The notes beneath the pieces are model-generated. The model was not told the origin of the DNA. It did no database searches and saw nothing but the letters and a program-made list of their open reading frames with translations. DNA of 36,209 nucleotides from an uncultured Candidatus Saccharibacteria bacterium. GTDB taxonomy: Bacteria; Patescibacteriota; Minisyncoccia; 2-02-FULL-40-12; IGHO2-01-FULL-4-A. Positions 5,201 through 36,209 of the stretch are shown here, one piece after another. The position numbers and the translations under genes are program-made. The stretch's first letter is position 1. Every line of letters starts with the position of its first letter. The stretch spans positions 1 through 36,209 of the forward strand of contig CAYILQ010000002.1 of assembly GCA_964364345.1 (NCBI GenBank). The letters are read 5' to 3'.

Positions 5201-5236
5201 AACCCCGCCGCGTCAAACGCGGCGGGGTTTGTGTTT
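5201..5236 (+). terminator. Intrinsic terminator between convergent genes
   Basis: Perfect 13-bp stem AACCCCGCCGCGT / ACGCGGCGGGGTT with a 3-nt loop, followed by TGTGTTT. Confidence 0.7.
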
Positions 5237-5986: not shown

Positions 5987-6162
5987 ACCTCACACTATGA
6001 AATTGCGTTTAGAAGCAACAAAAACAGATGAGACGCGCAGTTTTGGAGCGTGGCAAAATGTGAGCCGTACCCGGCGGTACGGTGAACATTTTTCCCGCGA
6101 AAAACAAGCGTATCGCTGTTTTTGTTGTCTTATTGAGTGCAATTTCATAGTGTGAGGTCTAT
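5983..6162. repeat. 180-bp long hairpin element with perfect 24-bp termini
   Basis: ATAGACCTCACACTATGAAATTGC (5983-6006) is the exact reverse complement of 6139-6162. There is a second 15-bp arm pair (AAGCAACAAAAACAG / CTGTTTTTGTTGTCTT) and a central CCGTACC-CGGC-GGTACGG hairpin. It overlaps the upstream stop codon and ends 9 nt before the SOD ATG. Confidence 0.85.
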
Positions 6163-6171
6163 AGGCTAAAC

Positions 6172-6831
6172 ATGGATTCTAAACCTCTGCCATTCAAAAA
6201 ACTCAACGGTATTTCCGAAAAAACTCTGGAGATCCACCACGACAAGCTTTATGTCGGCTATGTAAAGAAGGTTGATGAGATTGAGGAGAAGCTGGGAAAA
6301 CTAAGGGACGAGATTATAGCCGGTACGGCCCCGGGCGGGAATGCGACTTACAGCGAACTTCGGGCCTTAAAAGACGCCGAGACTTTTGCCGTCAACGGCG
6401 TCTATCTTCACGAGTGGTATTTTGATGTCTTAGGCGTCCCCGTGCCTGATATTGATACCGGCCTTGGGCGCGAAGGGACCGAGGGCGGCGCTTACTCAAA
6501 GGCCCCGGAATTGAGCAAAGCGATTTCTGAAAAATGGGGCTCGGTTGAAAATTTCATGAGATATTTTTCTGAATGCGGCATGGCTTCGCGCGGTTGGTCG
6601 CTTCTGGTTTGGGACACCAAGCGGGGAAGACTGATGCAGTACAACGGCGACGCCCACAATCAAGGCGGGGTCTGGGGCTGCCTCCCCATCATCGTCCTTG
6701 ACGTTTACGAACACGCCTATTTCATTGACTTCGGCTCCGACCGCAAGGCCTACATTGAAGCTTTCTGGCGGAATCTCAATTGGTCAGCGGCAGAGGCATT
6801 ATTTCTCACGGTTAGAAATGTTAAGTTATAA
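6172..6831 (+). CDS. Fe/Mn-family superoxide dismutase
   Basis: N-terminal LEIHHDKLYVGYV, mid LHEWYF, and C-terminal DVYEHAYFIDFGSDRKAYIEAFWRNLNW (the D-x-[WY]-E-H-A-Y signature). Has a short extra loop before the SEKWGS segment. Confidence 0.85.
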   Translation: MDSKPLPFKKLNGISEKTLEIHHDKLYVGYVKKVDEIEEKLGKLRDEIIAGTAPGGNATYSELRALKDAETFAVNGVYLHEWYFDVLGVPVPDIDTGLGREGTEGGAYSKAPELSKAISEKWGSVENFMRYFSECGMASRGWSLLVWDTKRGRLMQYNGDAHNQGGVWGCLPIIVLDVYEHAYFIDFGSDRKAYIEAFWRNLNWSAAEALFLTVRNVKL

Positions 6832-7248: not shown

Positions 7249-8619
7249 TTATCTCCACGAGGGGAACCAAACCCTAGCGTTATAGGCCTTGTCAGTTAGG
7301 GGCAAACCGTAAGAAAGGGGAGCGAAGTAGATAAAGGTAATCAAACTGGCAACAATCAGGGCGGCGAAAACTGTTTTTCTTTTCGGTAATTTGTCAAGCA
7401 AATAGACCAGGATCAAGATCGCAAATATCAAGGCGGTTAAGTAGTGGTACAGAAACATGGCCCGTTTGATGCCGATGAAGGGTAAAAGATTGAAAAAATA
7501 CGCGCCGGCCAAAAGCCACAACGAACCGTCGGCCTTTAATTTCCTTAAGAGGACGCTTATCAGCAAATAGAAAACGGCTATGGTAGAAGCCCACCAAATA
7601 GCAGGATTACCAAGAAAGTAAATCCGAGAACCAGAGCTGGTAGCTGGTAGCTGATCGCTGGTGGTTGTGTCAGCCTGGTACCAGTAGTAGATTGGTCGGA
7701 CCATAAACGGCCAGCTGTACCAATGGCTGGAGTAAGGGTGGGTTGCTGTCAAAGTGGCGTTTGATTTGTACATTTGGAGGTTCAACTCGACGAACTTTTC
7801 GAATAAATTTAAGGGTTTAATCTCCGGGTGGGCTTGGTTTTGGTTACCCTTGAGGCTCTTTTGAAAAGCGATAGTCATGAAAGCGTCGCCCGGGCCGGAT
7901 TTGTTAAGGAGCCCAAGATGAATCGCAAAAATCGCAAAATATATCGCCAGAGGCAGTACCAGGAGATTAAATTTTTTAACAAGGAGCAAATTGACCCAGA
8001 TTTGCTCCTTGCTTCTTAGTACCCTAAGCGCTTCCATAATAATCGGAATCGCCAAGAAAGCGGCTCCGGTCCATTTGACCGACGCCGCCAAAGCGCCGAA
8101 AATCCCCGTCAGAATTAAAAGAGAGGTTCGGTTTATCCGGCGATACTTGAGGTAGAAAAAAAGCGATGAGAAACCGAAAAGCAGCAAAAAAGAATCTAAA
8201 AGGATAAAACGCGACTGGGTCAGCAGCGAATTTTCCAAAACCGCCAGAGCGCCGACAGCAAACGCCGCCAATCGAGACAAACCGACCTCCAGCGCTAAAT
8301 AGAAAATGACCAAAGGCAGCAAGATACCGGCGATTGTCGGCAGAAGTCTTAGCCACAAATAGGCGTTATCAGGAAATTTCTGGCCGATCTCGGCAAAACT
8401 AAAACCGGGCTGAAAGCCGTTCACATAGCCGACGGCCGAAATTAAGAGCTTGCCTAAGGGTGGGTGAATGTCGAAAAAATACTCGCCCGTAAAATAGCCG
8501 GAAATAAATTTGCCAAAATGGACTTCGTCAAAGACCGTCTCGTTAGGATGGCCGTAGAATAGGAAATGGACAATGACGCTCGCGGCCAGGATTATCAGAA
8601 CCGGCAAGTGTTTGCGCAT
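7249..8619 (-). CDS. GT39 (PMT-family) dolichyl/polyprenyl-phosphate-mannose protein mannosyltransferase
   Basis: 456-aa polytopic membrane protein with the loop-1 motif DEVHFGKF followed by DIHPPLGK, typical of the PMT/GT39 family. Confidence 0.85.
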   Translation of the reverse strand: MRKHLPVLIILAASVIVHFLFYGHPNETVFDEVHFGKFISGYFTGEYFFDIHPPLGKLLISAVGYVNGFQPGFSFAEIGQKFPDNAYLWLRLLPTIAGILLPLVIFYLALEVGLSRLAAFAVGALAVLENSLLTQSRFILLDSFLLLFGFSSLFFYLKYRRINRTSLLILTGIFGALAASVKWTGAAFLAIPIIMEALRVLRSKEQIWVNLLLVKKFNLLVLPLAIYFAIFAIHLGLLNKSGPGDAFMTIAFQKSLKGNQNQAHPEIKPLNLFEKFVELNLQMYKSNATLTATHPYSSHWYSWPFMVRPIYYWYQADTTTSDQLPATSSGSRIYFLGNPAIWWASTIAVFYLLISVLLRKLKADGSLWLLAGAYFFNLLPFIGIKRAMFLYHYLTALIFAILILVYLLDKLPKRKTVFAALIVASLITFIYFAPLSYGLPLTDKAYNARVWFPSWR

Positions 8620-8648: not shown

Positions 8649-9623
8649 ATGCTATACGATCTGATAATTATAGGAGGGTCAGCGGCGGCGACTGCCGCGG
8701 GCATTTACGCTGCTCGGCGGAATTTGAATTTTAAGATCATTACCAAGGATTTTGGCGGCGAAGTGGCCACTTCGGGCGAGATCGGCAACTGGCCGGGCAT
8801 TACCCAAACTGACGGTGTAGCTTTGACTCAACAATTTAAGGAGCACCTTAGGTTTTACCATGTTGAGCCGGAAGAGGGAGTTTGGGTTGAGAAAATTACC
8901 CGTCAAGATGACGGCACTTTCTGCATAACCGCGACCAAAGACGGCCAACCAAAGATGGCAGTTGAGAAGCTCCCCGACGGCTCCCAGCCAGCCCGGCGCT
9001 GTGATTATGTAACTAAGACCTTAATCTTGGCCACCGGCGTTCATCCCCGGGAGCTTAACATCCCGGGCGAGAAAGAGTTCCGCAACAAAGGGGTGAGTTA
9101 CTGTTCCGTTTGTGATTTGCCTGTTTTTGCTGGAAAAATTGTAGCAACCGTCGGCGGCGGGAACTCGGCGCTGGAGTCGGCTCTAATGGGTACCGACATT
9201 GCTTCCAAAGTTTATGTCGTCAACAAAAACCCTCAATTCAAAGGCGACCAGATTTTGATTGATAATCTAACGCGGAAAAAAAACGTTGAAATAATCTACA
9301 GCGCCAAGACTACGCGAATTACTGGCAGTGAGTTTGTGAATGGCTTAAAATACACTGACAAGGACGGCAAAGAGCAGGAGCTGAAAGTTGACGGCATCTT
9401 TGTCCATATCGGCATGGTGCCGAACAGCGGTGTCGCGCCCGAAGGCACAGAGAAGAATCAATTCGGCGAGATCATAGTCAACAAAAACTGTGAGACCAAC
9501 ATCCCTGGTCTTTACGCCGCCGGCGATGTCACCGACGTGCCCCACAAGCAAATCGTCATCGCCGCCGGCCAAGGGACTTGCGCGGTGCTGTCAGCGGTCA
9601 ATTACTTGAACCGACTCAAATAA
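8649..9623 (+). CDS. trxB: Thioredoxin-disulfide reductase
   Basis: 324 aa with IIIGGSAAATAA (FAD), the CSVCD redox CxxC, GGGNSALESA (NADPH) and the AAGDVTD motif. Confidence 0.85.
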   Translation: MLYDLIIIGGSAAATAAGIYAARRNLNFKIITKDFGGEVATSGEIGNWPGITQTDGVALTQQFKEHLRFYHVEPEEGVWVEKITRQDDGTFCITATKDGQPKMAVEKLPDGSQPARRCDYVTKTLILATGVHPRELNIPGEKEFRNKGVSYCSVCDLPVFAGKIVATVGGGNSALESALMGTDIASKVYVVNKNPQFKGDQILIDNLTRKKNVEIIYSAKTTRITGSEFVNGLKYTDKDGKEQELKVDGIFVHIGMVPNSGVAPEGTEKNQFGEIIVNKNCETNIPGLYAAGDVTDVPHKQIVIAAGQGTCAVLSAVNYLNRLK

Positions 9624-9668: not shown

Positions 9669-10220
9669 ATGAAAAATATGATTTATCTCGGCTCCGATCA
9701 CAGAGGATACGAGTTGAAGGAGAAAATCAAGAAGTGGCTTTTAGATTGGGGTTATCAGTCTGAAGACTGCGGCGCTTTTGAATATGACGAAAAAGACGAC
9801 TATCCGGACTTTGTTCATGGAGTCGCCCAAAAAGTTTCCGCAGACCCGGAAAATTCAAAAGCGATCATTCTGGGCGGTTCCGGACAGGGTGAGGCAATGG
9901 TGGCGAACCGGTATAAAGGTGTCAGAGCGGCGGTTTTTTACGGGCCCCCGTTTCAGTTTAAGATGATGTCGTGGTCTAAATGGCTTATCTTAGGCAGCGG
10001 GGGGCTTAATGTGGCCCAGAAGAGCGAATTTTCCGTTCTGCAAAAACTTGTTAAACTGTCTCGCGAACACAATGATGCCAATGTCTTGTCTCTGGGCGCT
10101 TCCTTCGTTGATGACGACGTGGCCCAAAAGATAATCAAACTCTGGCTGGAGACACCGTTTAGCGGCGAAGAGAGGCATATTAGGCGCCTTGGTAAAATAG
10201 AGGATTTGAAAAATGACTAG
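9669..10220 (+). CDS. rpiB: RpiB/LacA/LacB-family ribose-5-phosphate isomerase
   Basis: MKNMIYLGSDHRGYELKEKI..., SGQGEAMVANR, LSREHNDANVLSLGA and a C-terminal ERHIRR. The ORF opens at 9624 but ATG 9669 or 9678 fit the family N-terminus. About 22 extra residues precede LSREHND. Confidence 0.8.
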   Translation: MKNMIYLGSDHRGYELKEKIKKWLLDWGYQSEDCGAFEYDEKDDYPDFVHGVAQKVSADPENSKAIILGGSGQGEAMVANRYKGVRAAVFYGPPFQFKMMSWSKWLILGSGGLNVAQKSEFSVLQKLVKLSREHNDANVLSLGASFVDDDVAQKIIKLWLETPFSGEERHIRRLGKIEDLKND

Positions 10221-10461
10221 TCACAAGATTAATTTAATTGTTTCCGTTATTCTCGGCGTGATTGCGGGACTTTATGTTTCTTTGCAGCCTCCTCACATTT
10301 TCTGCTTTGACGATTGCCCGGTACCTATTTTAGAGAAAAGGGTTACCGTTGGTTTGGGAGTCTTCGCTTTCATATTTTTGATTGTCTTTATTTTTTTGGA
10401 ACTGGTAAGGTTCTTCAGAACTAAGCGGATCGTCGTAAAGAACCGCGGTACTGGAGATTGA
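10213..10461 (+). CDS. Hypothetical small membrane protein (two TM helices)
   Basis: 82 aa. The ATG overlaps the rpiB stop (ATGACTAG). Two hydrophobic helices and a basic tail. Confidence 0.5.
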   Translation: MTSHKINLIVSVILGVIAGLYVSLQPPHIFCFDDCPVPILEKRVTVGLGVFAFIFLIVFIFLELVRFFRTKRIVVKNRGTGD

Positions 10462-10463
10462 CT

Positions 10464-11204
10464 TGAGAGTACTCTCATGGTGACTTGAGGTGCGACCTCA
10501 AATAAATGAGAAAGGTAAAGTTTGTCAAAGGAGAGTTTTTCCATGTCTATAATCGTGGCGTGGATAAGCGCAATATTTTCCTGGATCAGGGGGATTATTT
10601 GAGGTTTTGCAAAGCGCTTAAATTTTTTAATTCCGAGAGTCCTTGCTGGATAGCAACGGTTAACAGAAAAGACCAAACTCCTTCCCCCGAAGATCAATTG
10701 GTGGATGTAATCTGCTTTTGTTTAATGCCTAATCATTATCATCTGCTTTTGCGGCCAATAACCGAAAATGGGGTGACCAAGTTCATGCGTAAACTAAACA
10801 CCGGCTATACTATTTATTTTAATATTAAGCATCAGAGAACCGGTAGATTGTTTGAAAATAAATTTAAAGCCATCCATGTTGATAACGACCTGTACCTTAA
10901 ACACCTTACTCGATATATCCACTTAAACCCGCTTGATCTGTATCAAGGTGAATGGCGGGAGGGCAAAGTAGGGAACGCCAAATCATCCTTGCGATACATA
11001 GAGGATTATCCGTGGTCAAGTTATTCCAGCTATGTTTCGAAATTTAAGCGCAATGATATAATTAACCCTAAACCGCTAATGGAAATCTTTGGAGGCGAAA
11101 ACTATGAAAACTTTGTTGCCTCTTGGACAGCACGTGATTTCGATACGGTCAGACCATTGACGCTGGAATAGTTTGTGTTTTGTTGAGGTCGCACCTCAAT
11201 AAAT
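10464..11204 (+). mobile_element. IS200/RAYT-like unit: Y1 (HUH) transposase bounded by terminal hairpins
   Basis: TTGAGGT-GCG-ACCTCAA (10485-10501) and TTGAGGT-CGC-ACCTCAA (11183-11199) have the same stem and complementary loops, and each is followed by (A)TAAAT. They lie 715 bp end to end, and a 14-bp palindrome TGAGAGTACTCTCA (10464-10477) sits just upstream. Confidence 0.7.
10506..11171 (+). CDS. IS200-like / REP-associated tyrosine (Y1, HUH) transposase
   Basis: 221 aa. HUH motif in CLMPNHYHLLLRP and a catalytic-Tyr motif RYIHLNP, as in the Y1_Tnp (PF01797-type) RAYT-like proteins. Confidence 0.85.
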   Translation: MRKVKFVKGEFFHVYNRGVDKRNIFLDQGDYLRFCKALKFFNSESPCWIATVNRKDQTPSPEDQLVDVICFCLMPNHYHLLLRPITENGVTKFMRKLNTGYTIYFNIKHQRTGRLFENKFKAIHVDNDLYLKHLTRYIHLNPLDLYQGEWREGKVGNAKSSLRYIEDYPWSSYSSYVSKFKRNDIINPKPLMEIFGGENYENFVASWTARDFDTVRPLTLE

Positions 11205-11207
11205 CTT

Positions 11208-12200
11208 ATGGCTGAAGTTTTTGTAACAAGACCTATCCCAAATCGAGGAATTGAAATTCTTAAGGCCGAAGGGTTTGATGTTGTCATAAACGAGATAGCC
11301 AGAGAGCGGGCGGCGACGAAGGAGGAGATGTTGGCTGCTCTGGGGCAAGCTCGAAATGAAGGAAAGCCCTTCAGTGCTTTGCTTTCGGTCTTGACTGAAG
11401 AAATTGACGCCGAAATTATGGATGCTGCCGGACCACAACTTAAAATTATCGCTAATTATGCGGTCGGTTTTGACAATATTGATCTGGCGGCGGCTAAACA
11501 ACGAAGGATCATGGTGACTAATACGCCGGAAGTGCTTACTAATACGGTGGCCGAACACACCTTTGCTTTAATGCTGGCCATTGCTCATCGGGTTTCTGAA
11601 GCCGATCGGTTCAGCCGCGCGGGATTATATAAAGCTTGGGGACCAGAACTGCTTTTGGGTACCGATGTTTCAGGCAAGACCTTGGGTGTAATTGGTCTTG
11701 GCCGGATTGGCTCGCGAGTGGCTCACCACGCTGTCAAGGGCTTTGGCATGAAAGTCATGTACACTGACCCCAAACCCAATCCAGACTTTGAGAGGGAATA
11801 TGGAGCAATTTACGCGGCCAGTGTTGATGAGCTTTTACCTCAAGGCGATTTTGTGTCAATCCACGCGCCGTTGTTGGATTCGACCCGGCACTTGATAAAT
11901 GAGGCCAGGCTCAAGATGATGAGACCGACCGCTTACTTGATAAACACTTCGCGCGGCCCGATAATTGATGAGAAGGCTCTGGCTGCAGCCTTGGTGCAGG
12001 GTTGGATCAAGGGCGCGGCCATTGATGTTTTTGAAAACGAGCCCGAGATTACTCCCGAGCTAAAAACGCTTGATAACATAATCTTGACCCCCCACATCGC
12101 CTCGGCGACCGCGGAAACCAGAAACAAGATGGCCGTTCTCGCCGCCGAAAACATTATTGAAGCTTTGGAAGGCAAAATCCCGCCCAATTTAGTTAAATAG
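11208..12200 (+). CDS. D-isomer-specific 2-hydroxyacid dehydrogenase (glyoxylate/hydroxypyruvate reductase-like)
   Basis: 330 aa with the GVIGLGRIGSRVA NAD-binding motif, INTSRGPIID and the LTPHIASAT catalytic His region. Confidence 0.9.
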   Translation: MAEVFVTRPIPNRGIEILKAEGFDVVINEIARERAATKEEMLAALGQARNEGKPFSALLSVLTEEIDAEIMDAAGPQLKIIANYAVGFDNIDLAAAKQRRIMVTNTPEVLTNTVAEHTFALMLAIAHRVSEADRFSRAGLYKAWGPELLLGTDVSGKTLGVIGLGRIGSRVAHHAVKGFGMKVMYTDPKPNPDFEREYGAIYAASVDELLPQGDFVSIHAPLLDSTRHLINEARLKMMRPTAYLINTSRGPIIDEKALAAALVQGWIKGAAIDVFENEPEITPELKTLDNIILTPHIASATAETRNKMAVLAAENIIEALEGKIPPNLVK

Positions 12201-12203
12201 CCA

Positions 12204-12255
12204 CTAGCCGCTAGCGACTAGCCACTGACACTAGTCGCTAAGGGCTAGTCGCTAG
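12204..12255. repeat. CTAG-rich palindromic spacer
   Basis: CTAGCGACTAG (12211-12221) is the reverse complement of CTAGTCGCTAG (12245-12255) and pairs over its first 10 nt with CTAGTCGCTA (12231-12240). Confidence 0.7.
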
Positions 12256-12263
12256 TTGCTTGT

Positions 12264-12908
12264 TTGGCAGAAATCATTCCGGCAATACTAGCCAAAAGCC
12301 GAGAAGAGCTAGTTGGTAAAATCATAATCGTTGAGCCGTACGTTGAGCGCGTCCATCTTGACATTGCCGATGGTATTGCCGTGCCCAATGTCACCATCAG
12401 CGGCCCCGAAGAAATTGAGACCGTTGAGACCCGGCTTGCCCTCGGTGTTCATCTGATGGTTTCCAAACCGGAGAATCATATCCATCGCTGGCTGGAGACC
12501 CAAGCCGACAAGTTTGTCTTTCACATTGAATACACCCAAACCCCCCAAATGATTATTGACGCGGTAAAAGAAGCGGAGCGCTCGGTGGGCATTGCTTTGA
12601 ATCCGGCGACACTGGCGGCCAAGATTGAACCATTTATTGACCAAATAGATTTTGTTCATTTCATGACTGTGGAACCCGGTTTTTATGGAGGTAAATTTGT
12701 GGAATCAGTCTTGGATAAAATTTCCGATTTTCACTATTTCTACCCCGATAAGCCAATTGAAGTTGATGGCGGCGTTACCCCCGAGACCGCGCCCCGATTG
12801 ATTGAGGCTGGAGTCAGCGGGCTGGTGGTGGGGAGTTATATTTTTCAAAACCACGATGTAGCTAAAGCAATTGAGAATTTGAAACTAGCAATAAGCAATA
12901 AGCAATAA
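12264..12908 (+). CDS. rpe: Ribulose-phosphate 3-epimerase
   Basis: 214 aa, TTG start. IIPAIL, HLDIADG, VHLMV, ALNP, MTVEPGF.G.KF, EVDGGV and VVGSYIF follow the RPE TIM-barrel pattern. Confidence 0.8.
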   Translation: MAEIIPAILAKSREELVGKIIIVEPYVERVHLDIADGIAVPNVTISGPEEIETVETRLALGVHLMVSKPENHIHRWLETQADKFVFHIEYTQTPQMIIDAVKEAERSVGIALNPATLAAKIEPFIDQIDFVHFMTVEPGFYGGKFVESVLDKISDFHYFYPDKPIEVDGGVTPETAPRLIEAGVSGLVVGSYIFQNHDVAKAIENLKLAISNKQ

Positions 12909-12963
12909 GCTGTGGGCTATAAGCGCCAGGAAGCCTTGCTCTTATTGCCTGTTAGCTTATTGC
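12888..12963. repeat. AATAAGC heptamer run with inverted GCTTATTGC copies, overlapping the rpe stop codon
   Basis: GCAATAAGCAATAAGCAATAAGC (12888-12910) faces CTTATTGC (12941-12948) and GCTTATTGC (12955-12963). Confidence 0.7.
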
Positions 12964-12975
12964 CTACCGCTTACT

Positions 12976-13983
12976 TTGTATGACGTTATCACCATAGGCT
13001 CGGCGACCCGCGATGTTTTTTTGATGGCCGAGGGGTTGGAAATTAGAAAGCACGCCGATTCGCTCACGGGCGTTGAGCAATGTTTTCCTTTGGGGACAAA
13101 AATTGAGGTTAAGGACATAGTTTTTGCCACCGGTGGCGGCGGGACTAACACGGCAGTGACTTTTGCCCGCCAGGGTTTTAAGACCGCCTGTCTGGGAGTA
13201 ATCGGCGATGACATCGTTGGCAAAGAAATACTGATTGAATTGGCCCACGAGGGGATTGAGACCAAATTTTTCCAGAAACACCGCGATGATTTCACGGCTT
13301 ACTCGGTGATTTTGGTCAACCCCTCGGCCGAGAGAACCATTTTGAGTTACAAAGGCGAGGGTCAGCATTTCGATATTAAAAAAGTTGCCTTTGATAAACT
13401 CCGGGCCAAATGGTTCTACCTTGATTCTCTGGGCGGCCATTACGACTTGCTTGAAGCCCTGGTTGGGCACGCCGTCAAAAACAAAATAAAAATTGCTTTT
13501 AACCCCGGCGGTAAAGAGCTGGCACACGGTTGGGACCGCCTAGCGCCGATTTTGAAAAATATTGATGTTTATATTACGAATAAGGAAGAGGGGAGCCAGC
13601 TCACCGGAGTTGAAGCCGGCGACCAAAAGATGATTCTGGACAAACTGCAGGCAGCGGTCAAGGAGATCGTAATTGTTAGCGATGGCCACAATGGGGTTAG
13701 AGTGAGAGACGGTCAGAGTGAGTACAGCGCCGGTGTGCCCGATTCACCGATTGTTGAACGCACCGGCGCCGGCGACGCTTTCGGTTCCGGGTTTGTCGCC
13801 GAGTATATTAGGAGTTCAGGGCTGGAGGCTGGAAGCCGGGAGCGGGAAGCTGCGATAGCAAAATCAATCCAATTTGCCACAGCCAACGCCTCCTCGGTGG
13901 TGACCCAATTTGGCGCCAAAGCCGGGATTTTGAAAAAAGGTGATTGGGGCCCGTGGCCATTGGTAGAAGTTAGGATGAGCTGA
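12976..13983 (+). CDS. PfkB-family carbohydrate kinase
   Basis: 335 aa, TTG start. N-terminal DVITIGSATRDVF, the GGGGTN di-Gly region, and C-terminal TGAGDAFGSGF (ATP/anion-hole motif). Confidence 0.85.
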   Translation: MYDVITIGSATRDVFLMAEGLEIRKHADSLTGVEQCFPLGTKIEVKDIVFATGGGGTNTAVTFARQGFKTACLGVIGDDIVGKEILIELAHEGIETKFFQKHRDDFTAYSVILVNPSAERTILSYKGEGQHFDIKKVAFDKLRAKWFYLDSLGGHYDLLEALVGHAVKNKIKIAFNPGGKELAHGWDRLAPILKNIDVYITNKEEGSQLTGVEAGDQKMILDKLQAAVKEIVIVSDGHNGVRVRDGQSEYSAGVPDSPIVERTGAGDAFGSGFVAEYIRSSGLEAGSREREAAIAKSIQFATANASSVVTQFGAKAGILKKGDWGPWPLVEVRMS

Positions 13984-17314: not shown

Positions 17315-18658
17315 ATGCGATTCAATCCAGAAATTTTCAGAGCCTATGATGTTAGGGGGGTTTATGATAAAGATCTTGATTGTGATTTTGCGGTTGGTCT
17401 TGGAACGGCGTTAGTCAGCTATCTCAAGGGTCCAAAGATCCTGGTGGCTCACGATGATCGCGATTCTTCAATTGCCCTCGCCCAGTCGCTGATGAATGGT
17501 GTGATGGCAGGCGGTAGCAAGGTAATTTACCTTGGCCTAGCGACGACACCTTTTTTTAATTTTGTTTTCGGCCAGCTTGGGGTTGCCGGTGGGGCAATGG
17601 TTACAGCTTCTCATAACCCCCCTCAATACGCCGGGTTCAAGATTTTTGGCAGGGGCGGCAATCCTCTTGGTCTTGATTCGGGCCTGGGGATTATAAAGGA
17701 GTTGGTTGAAAAGAATCAGTTTGATAAATTCAGAAAACAAGGCGACCTGATCAAGCCAGACCGTAAGAATTTGCTCGAGAAGTATGTAAAATTCGTTGCT
17801 GCCAAAGCGAAATCGAGGCCTGGAGAATTAAGGGATTTAAAAGTAAAGATTTCGGGGTCAGGGGTAGCAATGGAGGAAGCAGGGCTTCTGGCCAAAATCT
17901 GTGGCTTATCGGTTGACGACAATGGCGATATCCGTTTTCTGTTTGACGGTGATGCTGACCGGTTAGCCGTCATCAATGAAAATGGCGATCCCGTCCGTTC
18001 CGATCACCTCGTAGGTCTTTTGGCCAAGGATGCCGTTAAGTTTTTGTCTAAACCGAAGGTGGTTTACGATTCGCGATTTTCCAAAGGGGTGACCCAGAAG
18101 TTTGGCGAGTGGGGGGTCAAAGGCTTTCGGTCCCGGGTGGGTCGGGTTTTCGTTAGGGGTGAGATGATTAAACGCCAAGCGGATATCGGCGGTGAACTTT
18201 CCGGCCACGTTTATTTCAAAGAAGCCAATTACCACGAGCTGCCGCTTTTGGCGATGTTGAGACTTCTCAAAATATTGGCCCGAAGCAAAATGTCGATCGT
18301 GGAATTAGTTAAACCGTTCCAAACTTGGTATAACTCCGGCGAGATTAATTTTGAGATCGCGGATTTACCGAATCGGCCGGACTCCGGCTCGGAGCCTCCA
18401 AATAGACCACTATCATTTCACTACGATCGTGGTAAAATGATAGTGTGGGATTTGTTCGAGTTACTAAAACAAAAATTCAGCGACGGGGAATTTGATGACT
18501 TGGACGGCTTGACCATTGAATACCCGGATTGGTGGTTTAACATCCGGCCCTCAAACACCGAGCCGGTGCTGCGGCTTGTGGTTGAAGCAAAATCCCAAGA
18601 ACTGTTAGAGCAAAAGATATCAGAAGTTTCAGGGTTAATAAAAACCGCTCTGTTTTAG
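17315..18658 (+). CDS. Phosphomannomutase/phosphoglucomutase (alpha-D-phosphohexomutase)
   Basis: TASHNPPQYAGFK active-site Ser loop, DGDADR Mg loop, GGELSGH sugar loop and RPSNTEPVLR phosphate loop. About 30 extra residues precede the C-terminal domain. Confidence 0.9.
   Translation: MRFNPEIFRAYDVRGVYDKDLDCDFAVGLGTALVSYLKGPKILVAHDDRDSSIALAQSLMNGVMAGGSKVIYLGLATTPFFNFVFGQLGVAGGAMVTASHNPPQYAGFKIFGRGGNPLGLDSGLGIIKELVEKNQFDKFRKQGDLIKPDRKNLLEKYVKFVAAKAKSRPGELRDLKVKISGSGVAMEEAGLLAKICGLSVDDNGDIRFLFDGDADRLAVINENGDPVRSDHLVGLLAKDAVKFLSKPKVVYDSRFSKGVTQKFGEWGVKGFRSRVGRVFVRGEMIKRQADIGGELSGHVYFKEANYHELPLLAMLRLLKILARSKMSIVELVKPFQTWYNSGEINFEIADLPNRPDSGSEPPNRPLSFHYDRGKMIVWDLFELLKQKFSDGEFDDLDGLTIEYPDWWFNIRPSNTEPVLRLVVEAKSQELLEQKISEVSGLIKTALF
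18408..18445. repeat. 38-bp palindrome family, copy 1, inside the phosphohexomutase CDS
   Basis: CACTATCATTTCACTACGATCGTGGTAAAATGATAGTG matches the consensus CACTATCATTTTACCACGATCGTGGTAAAATGATAGTG at 36/38. Translated as LSFHYDRGKMIV. Confidence 0.85.
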
Positions 18659-19664: not shown

Positions 19665-19731
19665 AAAAAAGGGGAGACCCCCGGCTTGCAATCTTACATG
19701 GGCGCCTTGTACACGAACAAGGCGCCCATGT
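19665..19731 (-). terminator. Perfect 15-bp hairpin plus short GC hairpin/T-run between rnj and trpS
   Basis: On the minus strand ACATGGGCGCCTTGT-TCGTGT-ACAAGGCGCCCATGT (19696-19731) is followed by GGGG-GTCT-CCCC-TTTTTT (19665-19682). Confidence 0.6.
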
Positions 19732-19740
19732 AATTGCCAT

Positions 19741-27528: not shown

Positions 27529-28563
27529 ATGCGAGATAACGTTTTGGCAACTTTGGCCTATTATGATGTTTTGGACTTTCCGCTCAAAGCCGAGGAGGTT
27601 TTGAAGTGCCTGATTAGACTTGATCCAAGATCACTATCATTTTACCACGCCCGCCAAAATTTTTGGCCTAGCGCCTCTGGCGCGGATCATGAAAACGGAT
27701 CCAAAAACTTAGGCGGGCACGATCGTGGTAATTTGATAGTGACCATTGCTGATATTAAAAAAATTCTTGACCAGTTGATCCTGGAAAAATTGGCCGATTT
27801 TAATCAGGGTTACTATTTCTTACCTGGTCGCGATTACCTCGCACCTCTGCGGCTTAAACGTGAAAAAATTTCCCGAAAAAAATGGGCCAAAGCCCGGCAA
27901 GCCATCTGGTGGCTGAAGTTTATTCCTTACGTTGAAGCGGTTTTTGCTTCGGGCTCACTAGCCCTCAACAATTGCGACGAGTTAAGCGACCTGGACGTTT
28001 TGGTGGTTACCAAACATGGCCGGATTTGGCTGACCAGGTTTTGGATTACCGCCTGGCTTTCCGTCATCGGTGCCCGCCGTAAGCCGTTTGACAAAATCGC
28101 CCCCGACAAAATCTGCCTCAACCACTATATCACCGATAAGTCGCTGCGAATTCCTTTTGAAAGCATGTACAACGCCCAGAATTATGTCAATCTAAAGCCG
28201 GTGTTGATCAGAAATTGGAAGATCGTTGAAAAATTTAGGGAGGAGAATAATTGGATTAGTAAGTTCGTGATTGGAGATTGGGCGATTAGCAATGATCCGG
28301 AAAAACTTATCAGAATCAACCGACTGGCGAGACTGGTTTCCGGGATTGGCAAAACGACCCTCAATACAAAATTGGGGGATTGGTTGGAAAAAATTGCCAG
28401 AAGATATCAAATAAAACGGATCGAAGCTAACCCTTTGACCAAAAGTCCAACCGGCCATGTCGTTTACTCTGACGAACAACTGGCCTTTCACCCTGATTCC
28501 CCGGAGTCTTCGGTCTTGGAAAGATTTGATCAGAAGCTTGCCGAATTGAAAATAGTTGTCTGA
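27529..28563 (+). CDS. Hypothetical protein with a polymerase-beta-type nucleotidyltransferase motif
   Basis: 344 aa. ASGSLALNNCDELSDLDVLVV (GS-x-SDxD). The N-terminal region is interrupted by a translated repeat element. Confidence 0.65.
   Translation: MRDNVLATLAYYDVLDFPLKAEEVLKCLIRLDPRSLSFYHARQNFWPSASGADHENGSKNLGGHDRGNLIVTIADIKKILDQLILEKLADFNQGYYFLPGRDYLAPLRLKREKISRKKWAKARQAIWWLKFIPYVEAVFASGSLALNNCDELSDLDVLVVTKHGRIWLTRFWITAWLSVIGARRKPFDKIAPDKICLNHYITDKSLRIPFESMYNAQNYVNLKPVLIRNWKIVEKFREENNWISKFVIGDWAISNDPEKLIRINRLARLVSGIGKTTLNTKLGDWLEKIARRYQIKRIEANPLTKSPTGHVVYSDEQLAFHPDSPESSVLERFDQKLAELKIVV
27632..27741. repeat. Composite element: 38-bp palindrome (copy 2) split by a 68-bp inner palindrome
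   Basis: The outer halves are CACTATCATTTTACCACG (27632-27649) and CACGATCGTGGTAATTTGATAGTG (27718-27741). The inner CCCGCCAAAATTTTTGG...CCAAAAACTTAGGCGGG (27650-27717) is flanked by a direct CACG duplication. Confidence 0.8.
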
Positions 28564-33201: not shown

Positions 33202-33229
33202 GGAAGTGTTTTCTGGAGAAAACACTTCC
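33202..33229 (+). terminator. Perfect 12-bp hairpin downstream of htpX
   Basis: GGAAGTGTTTTC-TGGA-GAAAACACTTCC followed by GTTGATT (weak U-tract). Nested within a 9-bp pair, TAGAGGCAG (33194) / CTGCCTCTA (33302). Confidence 0.5.
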
Positions 33230-34429: not shown

Positions 34430-34503
34430 CACTATCATTTTACCACGATCGTGAGAATCTGATAGTACTATTATTTTACCACGATCGTGGTAAAATGATA
34501 GCG
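34430..34503. repeat. 38-bp palindrome family, copies 3 and 4 in tandem (intergenic)
   Basis: 34430-34467 matches the consensus at 33/38 and 34466-34503 at 35/38. Preceded by the 14-nt tandem ATTATG(G/A)GTTCTCG x2 (34394-34421). Confidence 0.85.
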
Positions 34504-34576
34504 CGGGATTCGTAACCCCTCACACCCTCAAGTACTCGTTAAAGAAATTTGATTGATATCTCTGCCGAGATTCAGT

Positions 34577-34613: not shown

Positions 34614-36209
34614 ATGAAAAACCTTGTTTCTCGGGTCATTTCCAAGCTTAATTTGAAGATTGGAGTGAAATCTGTTATCGCCGGGGCGGCAGTGCTGGCG
34701 GTTTTGCCTTTTTTGGTTAATTTCGGCGACATGACTGCCGGCGCTGTTGAGTGTTCCGGAGCGCCGACGACGGCAACGGTTAACCCCTTCCCAATCACCT
34801 TCACCGGCGAGCCCTGCAAGGATTATCCGCCCATTGACGCCCGAGTGATCAATGAGGGCAGCTATTCCCAGGACATGAATGACTGGCTGGACGGCGTCAG
34901 CGCCGGAGCCGGCGACGAACTCTATGTCAGAATCTATGTTCACAACGGCGCCGCCGAAAATCTCGACCCGGCTCAAACCACGGCCCGCAATGTCCAAGCT
35001 TACACAACAGTTGATTCCGCCTATCAAGCCGAACATTCAATTGCGACGACCTTTTGGGGTTCAAACACCAATACCGTCAACGGCAGCATTGCCATTCACA
35101 CCGGACCCAATGACAAGTTGGTACCAATTGCCGCAAGCGGCGAGCTTTACGATTGGAACGGCAATTTAATCAGAAGCGGTCTTAACATCGCCGATACAAA
35201 TTATTACCTCGGCGATATGCTGGCCTGTTTTCAATACAGCGTTTTTCTCCGTTTCAAAGTCCAGGTAGTGAGTCAGCCAACGCCGACACCAACTCCTACA
35301 CCTACTCCCACTCCGACCCCGACGCCTACTCAAACACCTGCCCCAACGCCAACGCCACTTTGCAGTCTAACTTGGTCTTATCCGACATATTCGAATGGCG
35401 CCGGAGCGCGGCGTGTAGGGGAGTACTCAAATGTCTGGATTGACCTTTGGAATTTCACCCCTTCGAGCTCGGTGGTGATGCGCAACACTAATCTCGATGA
35501 CAGCCGCGCCCGCTCGGTCACTTTGGCCGTTGACCAATCCGGCGGTTTTCACAAATACGATTCAACTCTTATTGAAGCGTCTCAATACACCGCTGGCAGC
35601 TACAAGACCGAAATTTATGATAACTACGGGCGGTATTTAACTTATTGTTATCCAAGTTTTGTTATTTTGGCCCCAACACCGACGCCCACTCCTCCAACTC
35701 CTACGCCAACGCCCACACCTACGCCTACACCTATCCCAATAGTCAACGATACTCTTTGTCTTGGCATCAATTCACCGTCAACCGTAGTCACGGGTCAGAG
35801 CTTTAACGCCTCGGTGACTATGTACAATAGCGGCACTAAAGTCTGGACGAGAGACTCCACTCCTCATCGCCTTGGTTCCCAAAGTCCCCAAGACAATACT
35901 CGATGGGTAGTTAGCCGAGTAGAGTTGCCTTATTCGCCGGTCAACCCAGGTCAGACAGCCGTTTTTAGTTTTGCCGCTACTGCTCCGGCAACTGCCGGCA
36001 CTTATGCTTTTGATTGGAAGATGCTTGAAGAGTCCATTGAATGGTTTGGCCAAACCTGCCAGAAGACAATTACCGTCATTTCGCCAACTCCGACTCCTAC
36101 CCCGACCCCTACACCAACCCCAACTCCGACACCGACTCCTACGCCCACCCCCACTCCCACGCCTAGCCCAACTCCAAGCCCAACGCCGCTTACTCAACTT
36201 TTCTGCAGC
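34614..36209 (+). CDS. Secreted multidomain surface protein with Pro-Thr linkers (partial, runs off the window end)
   Basis: My own translation from ATG 34614 is open for 532 codons to the window end; it is absent from the ORF track because it has no stop. It has an N-terminal signal/TM helix and three globular modules separated by (PT)n linkers. The last module (GQSFNASVTMYNSGTKVW...GTYAFDWKMLEE..WFG) resembles NBR1-type Ig-like (FW) domains. Confidence 0.8.
   Translation, partial: MKNLVSRVISKLNLKIGVKSVIAGAAVLAVLPFLVNFGDMTAGAVECSGAPTTATVNPFPITFTGEPCKDYPPIDARVINEGSYSQDMNDWLDGVSAGAGDELYVRIYVHNGAAENLDPAQTTARNVQAYTTVDSAYQAEHSIATTFWGSNTNTVNGSIAIHTGPNDKLVPIAASGELYDWNGNLIRSGLNIADTNYYLGDMLACFQYSVFLRFKVQVVSQPTPTPTPTPTPTPTPTPTQTPAPTPTPLCSLTWSYPTYSNGAGARRVGEYSNVWIDLWNFTPSSSVVMRNTNLDDSRARSVTLAVDQSGGFHKYDSTLIEASQYTAGSYKTEIYDNYGRYLTYCYPSFVILAPTPTPTPPTPTPTPTPTPTPIPIVNDTLCLGINSPSTVVTGQSFNASVTMYNSGTKVWTRDSTPHRLGSQSPQDNTRWVVSRVELPYSPVNPGQTAVFSFAATAPATAGTYAFDWKMLEESIEWFGQTCQKTITVISPTPTPTPTPTPTPTPTPTPTPTPTPTPSPTPSPTPLTQLFCS
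35277..35357 (+). repeat. Pro-Thr linker-coding tandem repeat 1
   Basis: Encodes PTPTPTPTPTPTPTPTPTQTPAPTPTP. Confidence 0.9.
35670..35738 (+). repeat. Pro-Thr linker-coding tandem repeat 2
   Basis: Encodes APTPTPTPPTPTPTPTPTPTPIP. Confidence 0.9.
36081..36188 (+). repeat. Pro-Thr linker-coding tandem repeat 3
   Basis: Encodes SPTPTPTPTPTPTPTPTPTPTPTPTPSPTPSPTP. Confidence 0.9.

Follow-up and report, generated by a model that had tools for sequence, protein, structure and literature searches.

The subject of this work is a 715-bp unit on contig CAYILQ010000002.1 of an uncultured Candidatus Saccharibacteria bacterium (36,209 nucleotides, the whole of which is called here the window), in which a single gene encoding a HUH-Y1 protein lies between two small hairpins. 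The gene (10506..11171, + strand) codes for 221 amino acids (aa) and, judging from Pfam, motifs and fold, for a predicted single-strand DNA endonuclease/transferase of the RAYT/TIRYT class (RAYT stands for REP-associated tyrosine transposase, and REP for repetitive extragenic palindrome). The left hairpin, TTGAGGTGCGACCTCAA (10485..10501, + strand), pairs the arms TTGAGGT and ACCTCAA into a 7-bp stem closed by the 3-nt loop GCG, and is located 4 nt 5' of the ATG. The right hairpin, TTGAGGTCGCACCTCAA (11183..11199, + strand), has the same stem and the loop CGC; it starts 11 nt past the stop codon, and 8 nt separate its end from the ATG of a dehydrogenase gene. The two gaps correspond to 10502-05 and 11172-82, and the unit measures 715 bp end to end (10485-11199), exactly as a previous sequence-only reading of this DNA had delimited it.

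Read on the opposite strand, the right hairpin is identical to the left one; the pair therefore also forms a perfect 17-bp terminal inverted repeat (TIR), which in the window is self-complementary besides being inverted. Both 17-mers fold as a 7-bp stem with a 3-nt loop on either strand (DNA parameters), with energies between -5.2 and -6.8 kcal/mol and z values between -3.2 and -5.3. The pattern TTGAGGTSSSACCTCAA matches the 36.2-kb window only at these two places, both flanking the Y1 gene, even at 2 mismatches (expected number 0, 100 shuffles), and neither a second Y1 gene nor another copy of the 715-bp unit is present in the window. The 5' arm of the left hairpin includes a Shine-Dalgarno (SD)-like GAGGT, and the 5' GT[AG]G tetranucleotide is absent from the hairpin feet in the window. 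The possibility that the hairpins are intrinsic terminators or known RNAs was also considered and rejected: a search of 10000-11600 against Rfam gave no match at E <= 1, nothing resembling a promoter or a terminator adjoins the cassette, and there is no T-run after either hairpin.

The window protein matches Pfam PF01797 (Y1_Tnp) with 36 bits, the gathering cut-off being 23, and 74/74 aligned homologues are also above the cut-off. Y1_Tnp is the only Pfam domain found in the 74 members, with no helix-turn-helix (HTH) or DnaA_C domain in any of them, and the C-terminal region was not matched to an HTH. The HUH motif is NHYH (H77-Y-H79) and the catalytic tyrosine is Y137, within RYIHLNP; the sequence-only reading had identified both motifs, and both are borne out by the homologues. 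For instance, in alignments of 18 and 74 sequences H77, H79, Y137, I138, H139, and N141 are invariant and P142 nearly so. The WSS at 170-172 forms part of a conserved C-terminal motif, Y168-x-W170-S171-S172, in which, in the same alignments, Y168 and S171 are invariant and W170 and S172 nearly so. The window protein also contains LFEN, a position at which the homologues mostly have FQ, and the motifs of the family can be summarised as NH[YF]H / LF[EQ] / YIHLNP / WSS. A C-terminal extension of about 80 aa is helical in the AF2 model (pLDDT 89). Because a sequence-only profile search of the PDB gave marginal matches only, a comparison of folds was required. The Foldseek matches were 4ER8, 2XO6, 2A6O, and 2F4F, the best PDB match being 4ER8, the structure of the E. 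coli RAYT in complex with a REP hairpin (E 9.6e-6, TM 0.69 on target, ~13% identity). The model thus has the features of the HUH-Y1 superfamily, namely an RRM-like beta-alpha core and, besides the HUH motif, one catalytic Tyr carried by a C-terminal helix. The fold matches to the IS608 and ISDra2 TnpA were at ~1e-3, and those to the IS608, ISDra2, and IS200 transposases together ranged from ~1e-3 to 1e-2.

Class 2 (RAYT-like) enzymes are characterized by the signature Y-x-x-x-N-P and IS200 enzymes by Y-x-x-x-Q (Quentin et al. 2018, PMC6006769, Table 1). The window protein is a class-2 HUH-Y1 enzyme (RAYT/TIRYT-like) and not one of IS200 type. The set described for subclass 2.1 is composed of NH[YF]H or NHVH, FQ or W[EQ], Y[IV]HLNP or YIELNP, and an SS tail, in proteins of ~238 aa (PMC6006769, Table 1). 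Both the motif set and the length of the window protein match this subclass, which makes it a putative member by motif comparison rather than by profile search. Subclass 2.1 equals RAYT group 1 of Bertels et al. 2017 (PMC5581495), subclass 2.2 equals group 2, and subclass 2.1 probably corresponds to the TIRYT proteins of Di Nocera et al. 2013 (PMC3733652). The family to which the window protein belongs is large: clustering at 90% identity gives at least 3,759 clusters, and clustering at 50% identity gives 1,986 (E <= 1e-30). The organisms named in the source records are mostly Patescibacteria, but Omnitrophota and others also appear. In some genomes two Y1 paralogues lie only a few kb apart (loci L072, at 446-1225 and 5998-6687, L013, L036, L039, and L083). 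In L072, family-type GAGGT hairpins surround one of the paralogues only, and the other has a different upstream hairpin.

The window and six further lineages from independent assemblies, whose Y1 proteins are 49-68% identical to that of the window, constitute a clade in which protein identity ranges from 49 to 79%. In all six further lineages the left hairpin is found at -21/-22 relative to the ATG and the right one, past the stop codon, at +9 to +13, with the identical stems and complementary loops that the sequence-only reading had attributed to the Y1 gene. Synonymous sites in this gene are close to saturation, the third-codon identity between lineages being 33-61% (mean 45%). Despite this, both 17-mers are at least 16/17 identical in 21/21 lineage pairs, and the hairpins are therefore under strong constraint.

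The sole variable base of the hairpins is in the loop and is always altered on both sides. The window, L088, and L091 have GCG on the left and CGC on the right, and L002, L003, L092, and L213 have GCA on the left and TGC on the right; the right loop is thus the reverse complement of the left loop in 7/7 lineages of the clade. A neighbour-joining (NJ) tree groups the window with L002 (bootstrap 100), L088 with L091 (94), and L003 with L092 (100). Since this tree makes the window (GCG) and L002 (GCA) sisters with a bootstrap of 100, at least two independent double loop changes are needed. One reading of this concerted change is that one hairpin end was copied from the other. Long-range pairing of the two 17-mers in the mRNA is unlikely to be behind the loop covariation, because 14/39 loci of the wider family (described below) have identical, not complementary, loops.

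Just outside the right hairpin, two lineages have tandem copies of a unit made up of the 3' hairpin half and 5-6 nt of flank (coordinates approximate): L088 has three units of ACC(C)TCAATAATAC at 2012-2062, and L002 two units of ACCTCAATGCTCAC at 2049-2076. They are possible footprints of repeated cleavage and joining, or of slippage. The sequence (A)TAAAT, which the sequence-only reading had placed after each hairpin, is real in the window but is kept in 0/6 of the related lineages; it was rejected as a part of the element, to which it probably does not belong.

The cassette occupies the same neighbourhood in 7/7 lineages, that is, a PMT glycosyltransferase gene (on the - strand), TrxR, rpiB, the dehydrogenase gene, rpe, and pfkB, co-directional with it, but its exact position differs. 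In L088-L090 and L091 it lies between TrxR and rpiB (slot A), in L002 and L003-L007 directly after rpiB (slot B), and in the window (L001), L092, and L213 directly before the dehydrogenase gene (slot C). The three slots used among the seven lineages lie within about 2 kb, and every slot is represented on contigs from different samples. The slot differs within two well-supported sister pairs, C in the window versus B in L002, and B in L003 versus C in L092. As the architecture is identical in the three slots, the cassette behaves as one unit.

Syntenic relatives provide the corresponding empty sites. L219, whose rpiB product is 75% identical, has slots A and B empty, and it possesses the small-ORF pair (ORF, open reading frame) that follows the cassette in L002. 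L217 and L218 (rpiB, 70%) keep the synteny without any Y1 gene. In these two loci, an FAD-linked oxidase gene (PF01565/PF02913; L217, 6750-8459; L218, 6760-8454) follows rpiB where the window clade has the 2-hydroxyacid dehydrogenase. The empty target sites resemble hairpin half-sites. Similarity between the outer flanks amounts to 6/8 positions in L088, 4/8 in L002, and about 0/8 in the window, which is too inconsistent for a target-site duplication to be claimed.

The divergence of the Y1 protein follows that of its neighbours. The identities to the window are 87% for TrxR and 68% for Y1 in L002, 81% and 56% in L088, and 67% and 49% in L003, so the order of Y1 identity is the order of host-protein identity. 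This fits vertical descent with a faster-evolving Y1 gene, which is single-copy in all sequence seen (locus-level contigs). From the slots, the empty sites and this co-divergence it follows that the cassette is an old resident which has been relocated and lost a few times, and is therefore neither a recent insertion sequence (IS) nor a fixed gene. The sequence-only reading had described it as interrupting an otherwise contiguous block of genes; relatives with the neighbourhood and no cassette do exist, but the cassette has long been resident there.

In the window, the upstream neighbours are a thioredoxin-reductase-like gene (TrxR, 8649-9623), rpiB (9624/9678-10220), and an 82-aa ORF without a Pfam match (10213-10461), and the downstream ones are the 2-hydroxyacid dehydrogenase gene, rpe, and pfkB (11208..13983). 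All of them are on the + strand, co-directional with the cassette. The sequence-only reading had named rpiB, the dehydrogenase, rpe, and pfkB, and the 82-aa ORF is the one that it had described as a small membrane gene. The 82-aa ORF and the small ORF that follows the L003 cassette give a BLASTP E of 0.039, which is suggestive only, and the C-terminal tails of the small ORFs of L003, L092, and L213 are alike by eye. The distinction between slots B and C is independent of this homology, since what defines slot C is its position immediately next to the dehydrogenase gene. The small overlapping ORFs of L002 (2155-2648) and L219 (3402-3727), of 69 aa and 95 aa and with a toxin-antitoxin-like layout, lie between rpiB/cassette and the dehydrogenase gene and are absent from the window. 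Deep synteny with rpiB outside the clade was considered and rejected, since rpiB, rpe, or pfkB occur within 6 kb in only 4-5/80 distant family loci, a slight enrichment at best.

The upstream ORF reads through the left hairpin in 5/7 lineages, acquiring tails such as ..LEVRPQKDEKN or ..IEVQPQ... In the four lineages with a visible stop codon (L002, L003, L088, and L213) it overlaps the start of the Y1 gene by 11-14 nt, a geometry of translational coupling. The only SD-like sequence for the Y1 gene is the GAGGT of the hairpin arm, as no other fits in the 4-5 nt before the ATG. Since no promoter-like or terminator-like site adjoins the cassette, and translation can rely only on this GAGGT or on coupling, expression of the Y1 gene probably depends on the host operon.

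The association between gene and hairpins is not restricted to this clade. The gene flanks of 80 further loci from species-representative genomes, 79 of them testable, were searched for perfect hairpins, and an upstream and a downstream hairpin were considered matched when they had identical apical 6 bp and the same loop length. Matched flanking hairpins were found in 39/79 loci but in 0/1580 random intervals of equal length from the same loci. The stems of the family hairpins range from 6 to 23 bp; their basal parts are species-specific, there is no conserved flank, and the apical consensus across the family is (Y)CGARGT plus a 3-nt loop. Y1 proteins that share the apical 5-mer of their hairpins are more alike than those that do not (50% versus 40% identity, permutation p < 0.001). 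Each gene of the family is flanked by its own cognate hairpin type.

Cognate hairpins are not only found at the gene borders. In 19/39 loci a third one is located in frame inside the Y1 gene (the window gene has none), in a variable loop that either precedes the HUH motif (aa about 53-65) or follows the Tyr motif (aa about 150-165). Further copies exist within 6 kb in 9/39 loci, often as doublets with complementary loops, adding up to 19 copies where 0.02 would be expected. The host ORFs TrxR, rpiB, the small ORF, and PMT also contain peptides encoded by hairpins, for example ..EVQPQ.. and ..RGSTS.. in their sequences. A metagenome scan for TTGAGGTGCRACCTCAA yielded at least 120 matching stretches; of the 80 examined, nearly all were unrelated, most of them representing one marine coding sequence, and only L108, on the same contig as L089, was relevant. 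The 17-mer TTGAGGTGCAACCTCAA turned out to be a trap for pattern searches, since it sits in this abundant and conserved coding sequence, which is unrelated to Y1, with the N-terminus MAKKAKAE..VEVAPQ.. on the opposite strand (L093-L172).

The reading that we favour, to which we assign a probability of roughly 0.65, is that a class-2 HUH-Y1 enzyme and its two cognate 17-nt inverted hairpins constitute a REPtron/TIRtron-like cassette that is vertically inherited and rarely relocated. By analogy with related enzymes, the Y1 protein would bind and cleave its flanking hairpins, may have caused the relocations, and could use the single-stranded DNA of replication forks as substrate. Enzymes of this class bind small hairpins extruded from single-stranded DNA, and they cut and rejoin the strand at the hairpin or close to it; the structures and biochemistry of IS608, ISDra2, and the E. 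coli RAYT are the basis for proposing the same of the Y1 protein. The cassette would be transcribed as part of the host sugar-phosphate operon, and on rare occasions the enzyme would act on the two ends of its own cassette and move the whole hairpin-gene-hairpin unit to a nearby site by excision and reinsertion. In other members of the family, hairpins of the same type would be copied elsewhere, alone or as doublets, into intergenic DNA and in frame into coding DNA, including their own gene.

Several points weigh against this reading. Similarity to characterised RAYTs is weak: the sole NCBIfam match, REP_Tyr_transpos (NF047646), scores 36.4 bits, below its cut-off of 80, and in the sequence-only search of the PDB the matches had E values of 0.03-0.08, with 4ER8 at 0.08. 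The orientation of the hairpins is not fixed family-wide, as the loops of the two hairpins are reverse complements in 20 of the 39 loci, identical in 14 and different in 5. The GT[AG]G that guides canonical RAYTs appears in 3/78 family hairpins. Only the two flanking copies are present in the 36 kb of the window, and the same is true of 20 kb of the relative L003, so that the lineage shows no sign of current activity. The relocations might also, in principle, have been produced by other kinds of recombination.

Among the alternatives, the one that survives best, although we regard it as unlikely, is that of a domesticated and immobile gene whose hairpins function at the RNA level only. The left hairpin would sequester GAGGT, the right one would act as a 3' stabiliser or boundary of the mRNA, and the different positions would have arisen by changes in gene order. 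The SD-like GAGGT, with no other SD in the 4-5 nt before the ATG, and the upstream ORFs that overlap the start codon and suggest coupling are consistent with this proposal, as is the presence of only two hairpin copies in this lineage; besides, REP hairpins are known to stabilise mRNA (PMC3733652). However, other members of the family also have such hairpins at a distance from the gene, in doublets, and in frame within coding sequences, where a role in Y1 expression is impossible. In addition, the hairpins travel with the gene to three slots, the concerted change of unpaired loops is not predicted by an RNA stem-loop, and neither hairpin is followed by a T-run.

Less probable still is the movement of the cassette by another agent, either palindrome recombination or template switching, or a recombinase that uses the 17-bp TIRs, the Y1 protein having some other job. 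The ends do form a perfect 17-bp TIR, and both the tandem half-site repeats and the similarity hinted at between the outer flanks of some loci could be interpreted in this way; from what is established for IS200/IS605, Y1 enzymes are not known to generate target duplications. Nevertheless, the flank similarity is inconsistent among L088, L002, and the window, the cassette contains no other transposase, and the link between gene and hairpins in 39/79 diverse loci, with protein and hairpin types that co-vary, indicates that both are functionally tied. A recent autonomous IS200/IS605 insertion into the sugar-phosphate operon, moving by peel-and-paste via same-strand subterminal hairpins, is very improbable: its size near that of IS200, the HUH-Y1 protein, the hairpins close to both ends, the variable position among relatives and the empty sites would suit it, but the protein has YIHLNP instead of Y-x-x-x-Q and 221 aa with a conserved C-terminal extension of ~80 aa instead of a ~150-aa core, its best fold is that of a RAYT and not of IS608 or ISDra2, the reverse-complementary loops make the ends inverted rather than same-strand, there is one copy per locus with no second copy in the window, and the cassette, which stays in one neighbourhood and co-diverges with the host genes down to 49% protein identity, behaves in the opposite way to the near-identical (99.4%) multicopy IS200.

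Perfect hairpins whose stems reach 8 bp or more are in excess in the window, which has 16 of them where shuffles give 3.6. Examples are those at 5201-5229 (13-bp stem, 3-nt loop), 19694-19733 (17-bp stem), and 33202-33229 (13-bp stem). They include a 36-38-bp palindrome family, ACTATCATTTTACCACGATCGTGGTAAAATGATAGT, found at 18409-18455, 27631-27741, and 34431-34513, as one single copy, one copy split into halves ~60 nt apart and one tandem pair; no cognate enzyme for it is present in the window. The sequence-only reading proposed the Y1 protein as the obvious candidate enzyme for these other palindromes, a view that we do not share, although it correctly stated that the hairpins of the cassette differ from the other palindrome families. 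None of the other window palindromes fits the hairpin consensus of the family or has anything in common with the TTGAGGT hairpins. Because of the cognate gene-hairpin rule, observed here and also reported for RAYTs (PMC6006769), the Y1 enzyme is a poor candidate for their mobilisation.

Some other repeats of the window deserve mention. A 14-nt perfect palindrome, TGAGAGTACTCTCA (10464..10477, read from the sequence, with no strand assigned), lies just to the left of the left hairpin and resembles a degenerate, loop-less copy of it. It falls within the span of a 9-nt direct duplication, TGACTTGAG (10459-10467 and 10481-10489), which takes in both the upstream ORF's stop codon and the foot of the left hairpin on its left side; this arrangement, to which the tandem half-hairpin repeats of L088 and L002 are comparable, is possibly the scar of an earlier event. 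The PMT gene (- strand) contains at 7980-8011 the in-frame palindrome CAAGGAGCAAAT-N8-ATTTGCTCCTTG (..RSKEQIWVNLLLVK..). At the equivalent protein position, the PMT gene of L003 (7905-7942) has a family-type hairpin doublet, TACGAGGTTCAACCTCGTA and TACGAGGTTGAACCTCGTA (..RGSTSYTRLNLVRG..), whose sequence is unrelated to that of the window palindrome. This suggests that the site is a hot spot for palindrome insertion, or that a palindrome is maintained in a coding loop. Finally, three blocks of 12-nt-periodic repeats of the CC[AT]AC[TG]CC type, ~360 nt apart, at 35265-36189 have the appearance of linker repeats rich in Pro/Thr, within a large coding region located at the end of the window.

A broader and more tentative proposal can be made by considering the clade and the family jointly. 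A large lineage of class-2 HUH-Y1 enzymes, mostly from Patescibacteria (the candidate phyla radiation, CPR) and of the subclass reported to have no REP-like partners, would keep a mini-hairpin system with an apical GARGT stem and a 3-nt loop. Its hairpins would be recopied from one another, and their loops would flip between inverted and direct states, like flip/flop termini. The hairpins would also colonise coding DNA in frame, including their own gene and the 3' tails of host genes. In the clade of the window, the cassette would hop locally within one operon, with its left hairpin fused to the upstream ORF, and be expressed by translational coupling.

Nearly all work on RAYT-type domesticated transposases and the palindromes associated with them has concerned Proteobacteria and Cyanobacteria, and the role of these enzymes in the cell is a standing question. 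No literature linking RAYT, REP, or TIRYT with CPR bacteria was found in the library searched. A large family mainly present in the ultra-small genomes of Patescibacteria, where repeated or selfish DNA is unexpected, could be of interest in this respect. It offers a compact system, with a 17-nt site, an apparently conserved recognition-relevant part, ends that evolve in concert, local moves between slots and in-frame hairpins, tractable for studying how class-2 Y1 enzymes recognise and move hairpins. It also bears on whether the largest 'REP-less' subclass truly lacks DNA partners. With respect to annotation, 'IS200-like transposase' calls in CPR genomes mostly do not correspond to insertion sequences.

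Compared with known systems, the cassette shares with IS200/IS605 TnpA elements (IS608, ISDra2, and IS200) the HUH-Y1 fold, small hairpins near both ends and a similar unit size, and a single-strand cut-and-paste chemistry would be plausible for both. However, IS200 TnpA proteins have Y-x-x-x-Q and a core of ~150 aa without a C-terminal extension, whereas the cassette protein has Y-x-x-x-N-P. The hairpins of the IS elements are on the same strand, while those of the cassette are inverted throughout the clade (in the wider family, 14/39 pairs have identical loops). IS copies are multiple, nearly identical (intragenomic identity of IS200, 99.4%; PMC6006769, Table 1) and devoid of long-term synteny, in contrast to a cassette present once in 36 kb and syntenic down to 49% identity.

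In-frame hairpins also have precedents. The Rickettsia RPEs are in-frame palindromic elements and in this sense are like the in-frame hairpins of the cassette family. Insertions of REP sequences inside tnpA_REP genes have been described in subclass 2.4 (Quentin et al. 2018, PMC6006769), but the cassette family belongs to another protein subclass, has another hairpin type, and its sites are not between the HUH and Tyr motifs.

The RAYT/TnpA_REP REPtrons (E. coli YafM/RayT, 4ER8; subclass 2.2) resemble the cassette in their HUH-Y1 core with Y-x-x-x-N-P, in the single-copy gene with its own cognate inverted hairpins, and in vertical inheritance within a conserved neighbourhood, and they provide the best fold match. 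Their cognate hairpins are dispersed as singles or doublets, as in other members of the cassette family. On the other hand, the cassette protein is below the NCBIfam cut-off (36 versus 80 bits) and only ~13% identical to 4ER8. Its hairpins are much smaller (7-bp stem, 3-nt loop), lack the GT[AG]G foot and conserve the apical stem instead of the foot; no dispersed copies are found in the window, and the whole cassette has changed position.

The TIRYT proteins and their TIRtrons (PMC3733652; subclass 2.1, PMC6006769; group 1, PMC5581495) share with the cassette the motifs NH[YF]H, FQ/FE, and Y[IV]HLNP, the SS tail and a length of ~220-240 aa, as well as a gene flanked by terminal inverted repeats and a low copy number. 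Some of the published TIRs are self-complementary, and the majority type shares GGGGWSAS (PMC3733652), whereas the TIR of the cassette is TTGAGGTGCGACCTCAA and the family consensus YCGARGT-N3. The subclass 2.1 TIRYT examples all have a C-terminal HTH/Bac_DnaA_C-like domain, in contrast to the 74/74 members studied here, in which none is detectable. Although Quentin et al. 2018 (PMC6006769) reported no REP-like hairpins around subclass 2.1 genes, clear hairpins flank 39/79 of the loci described in this work.

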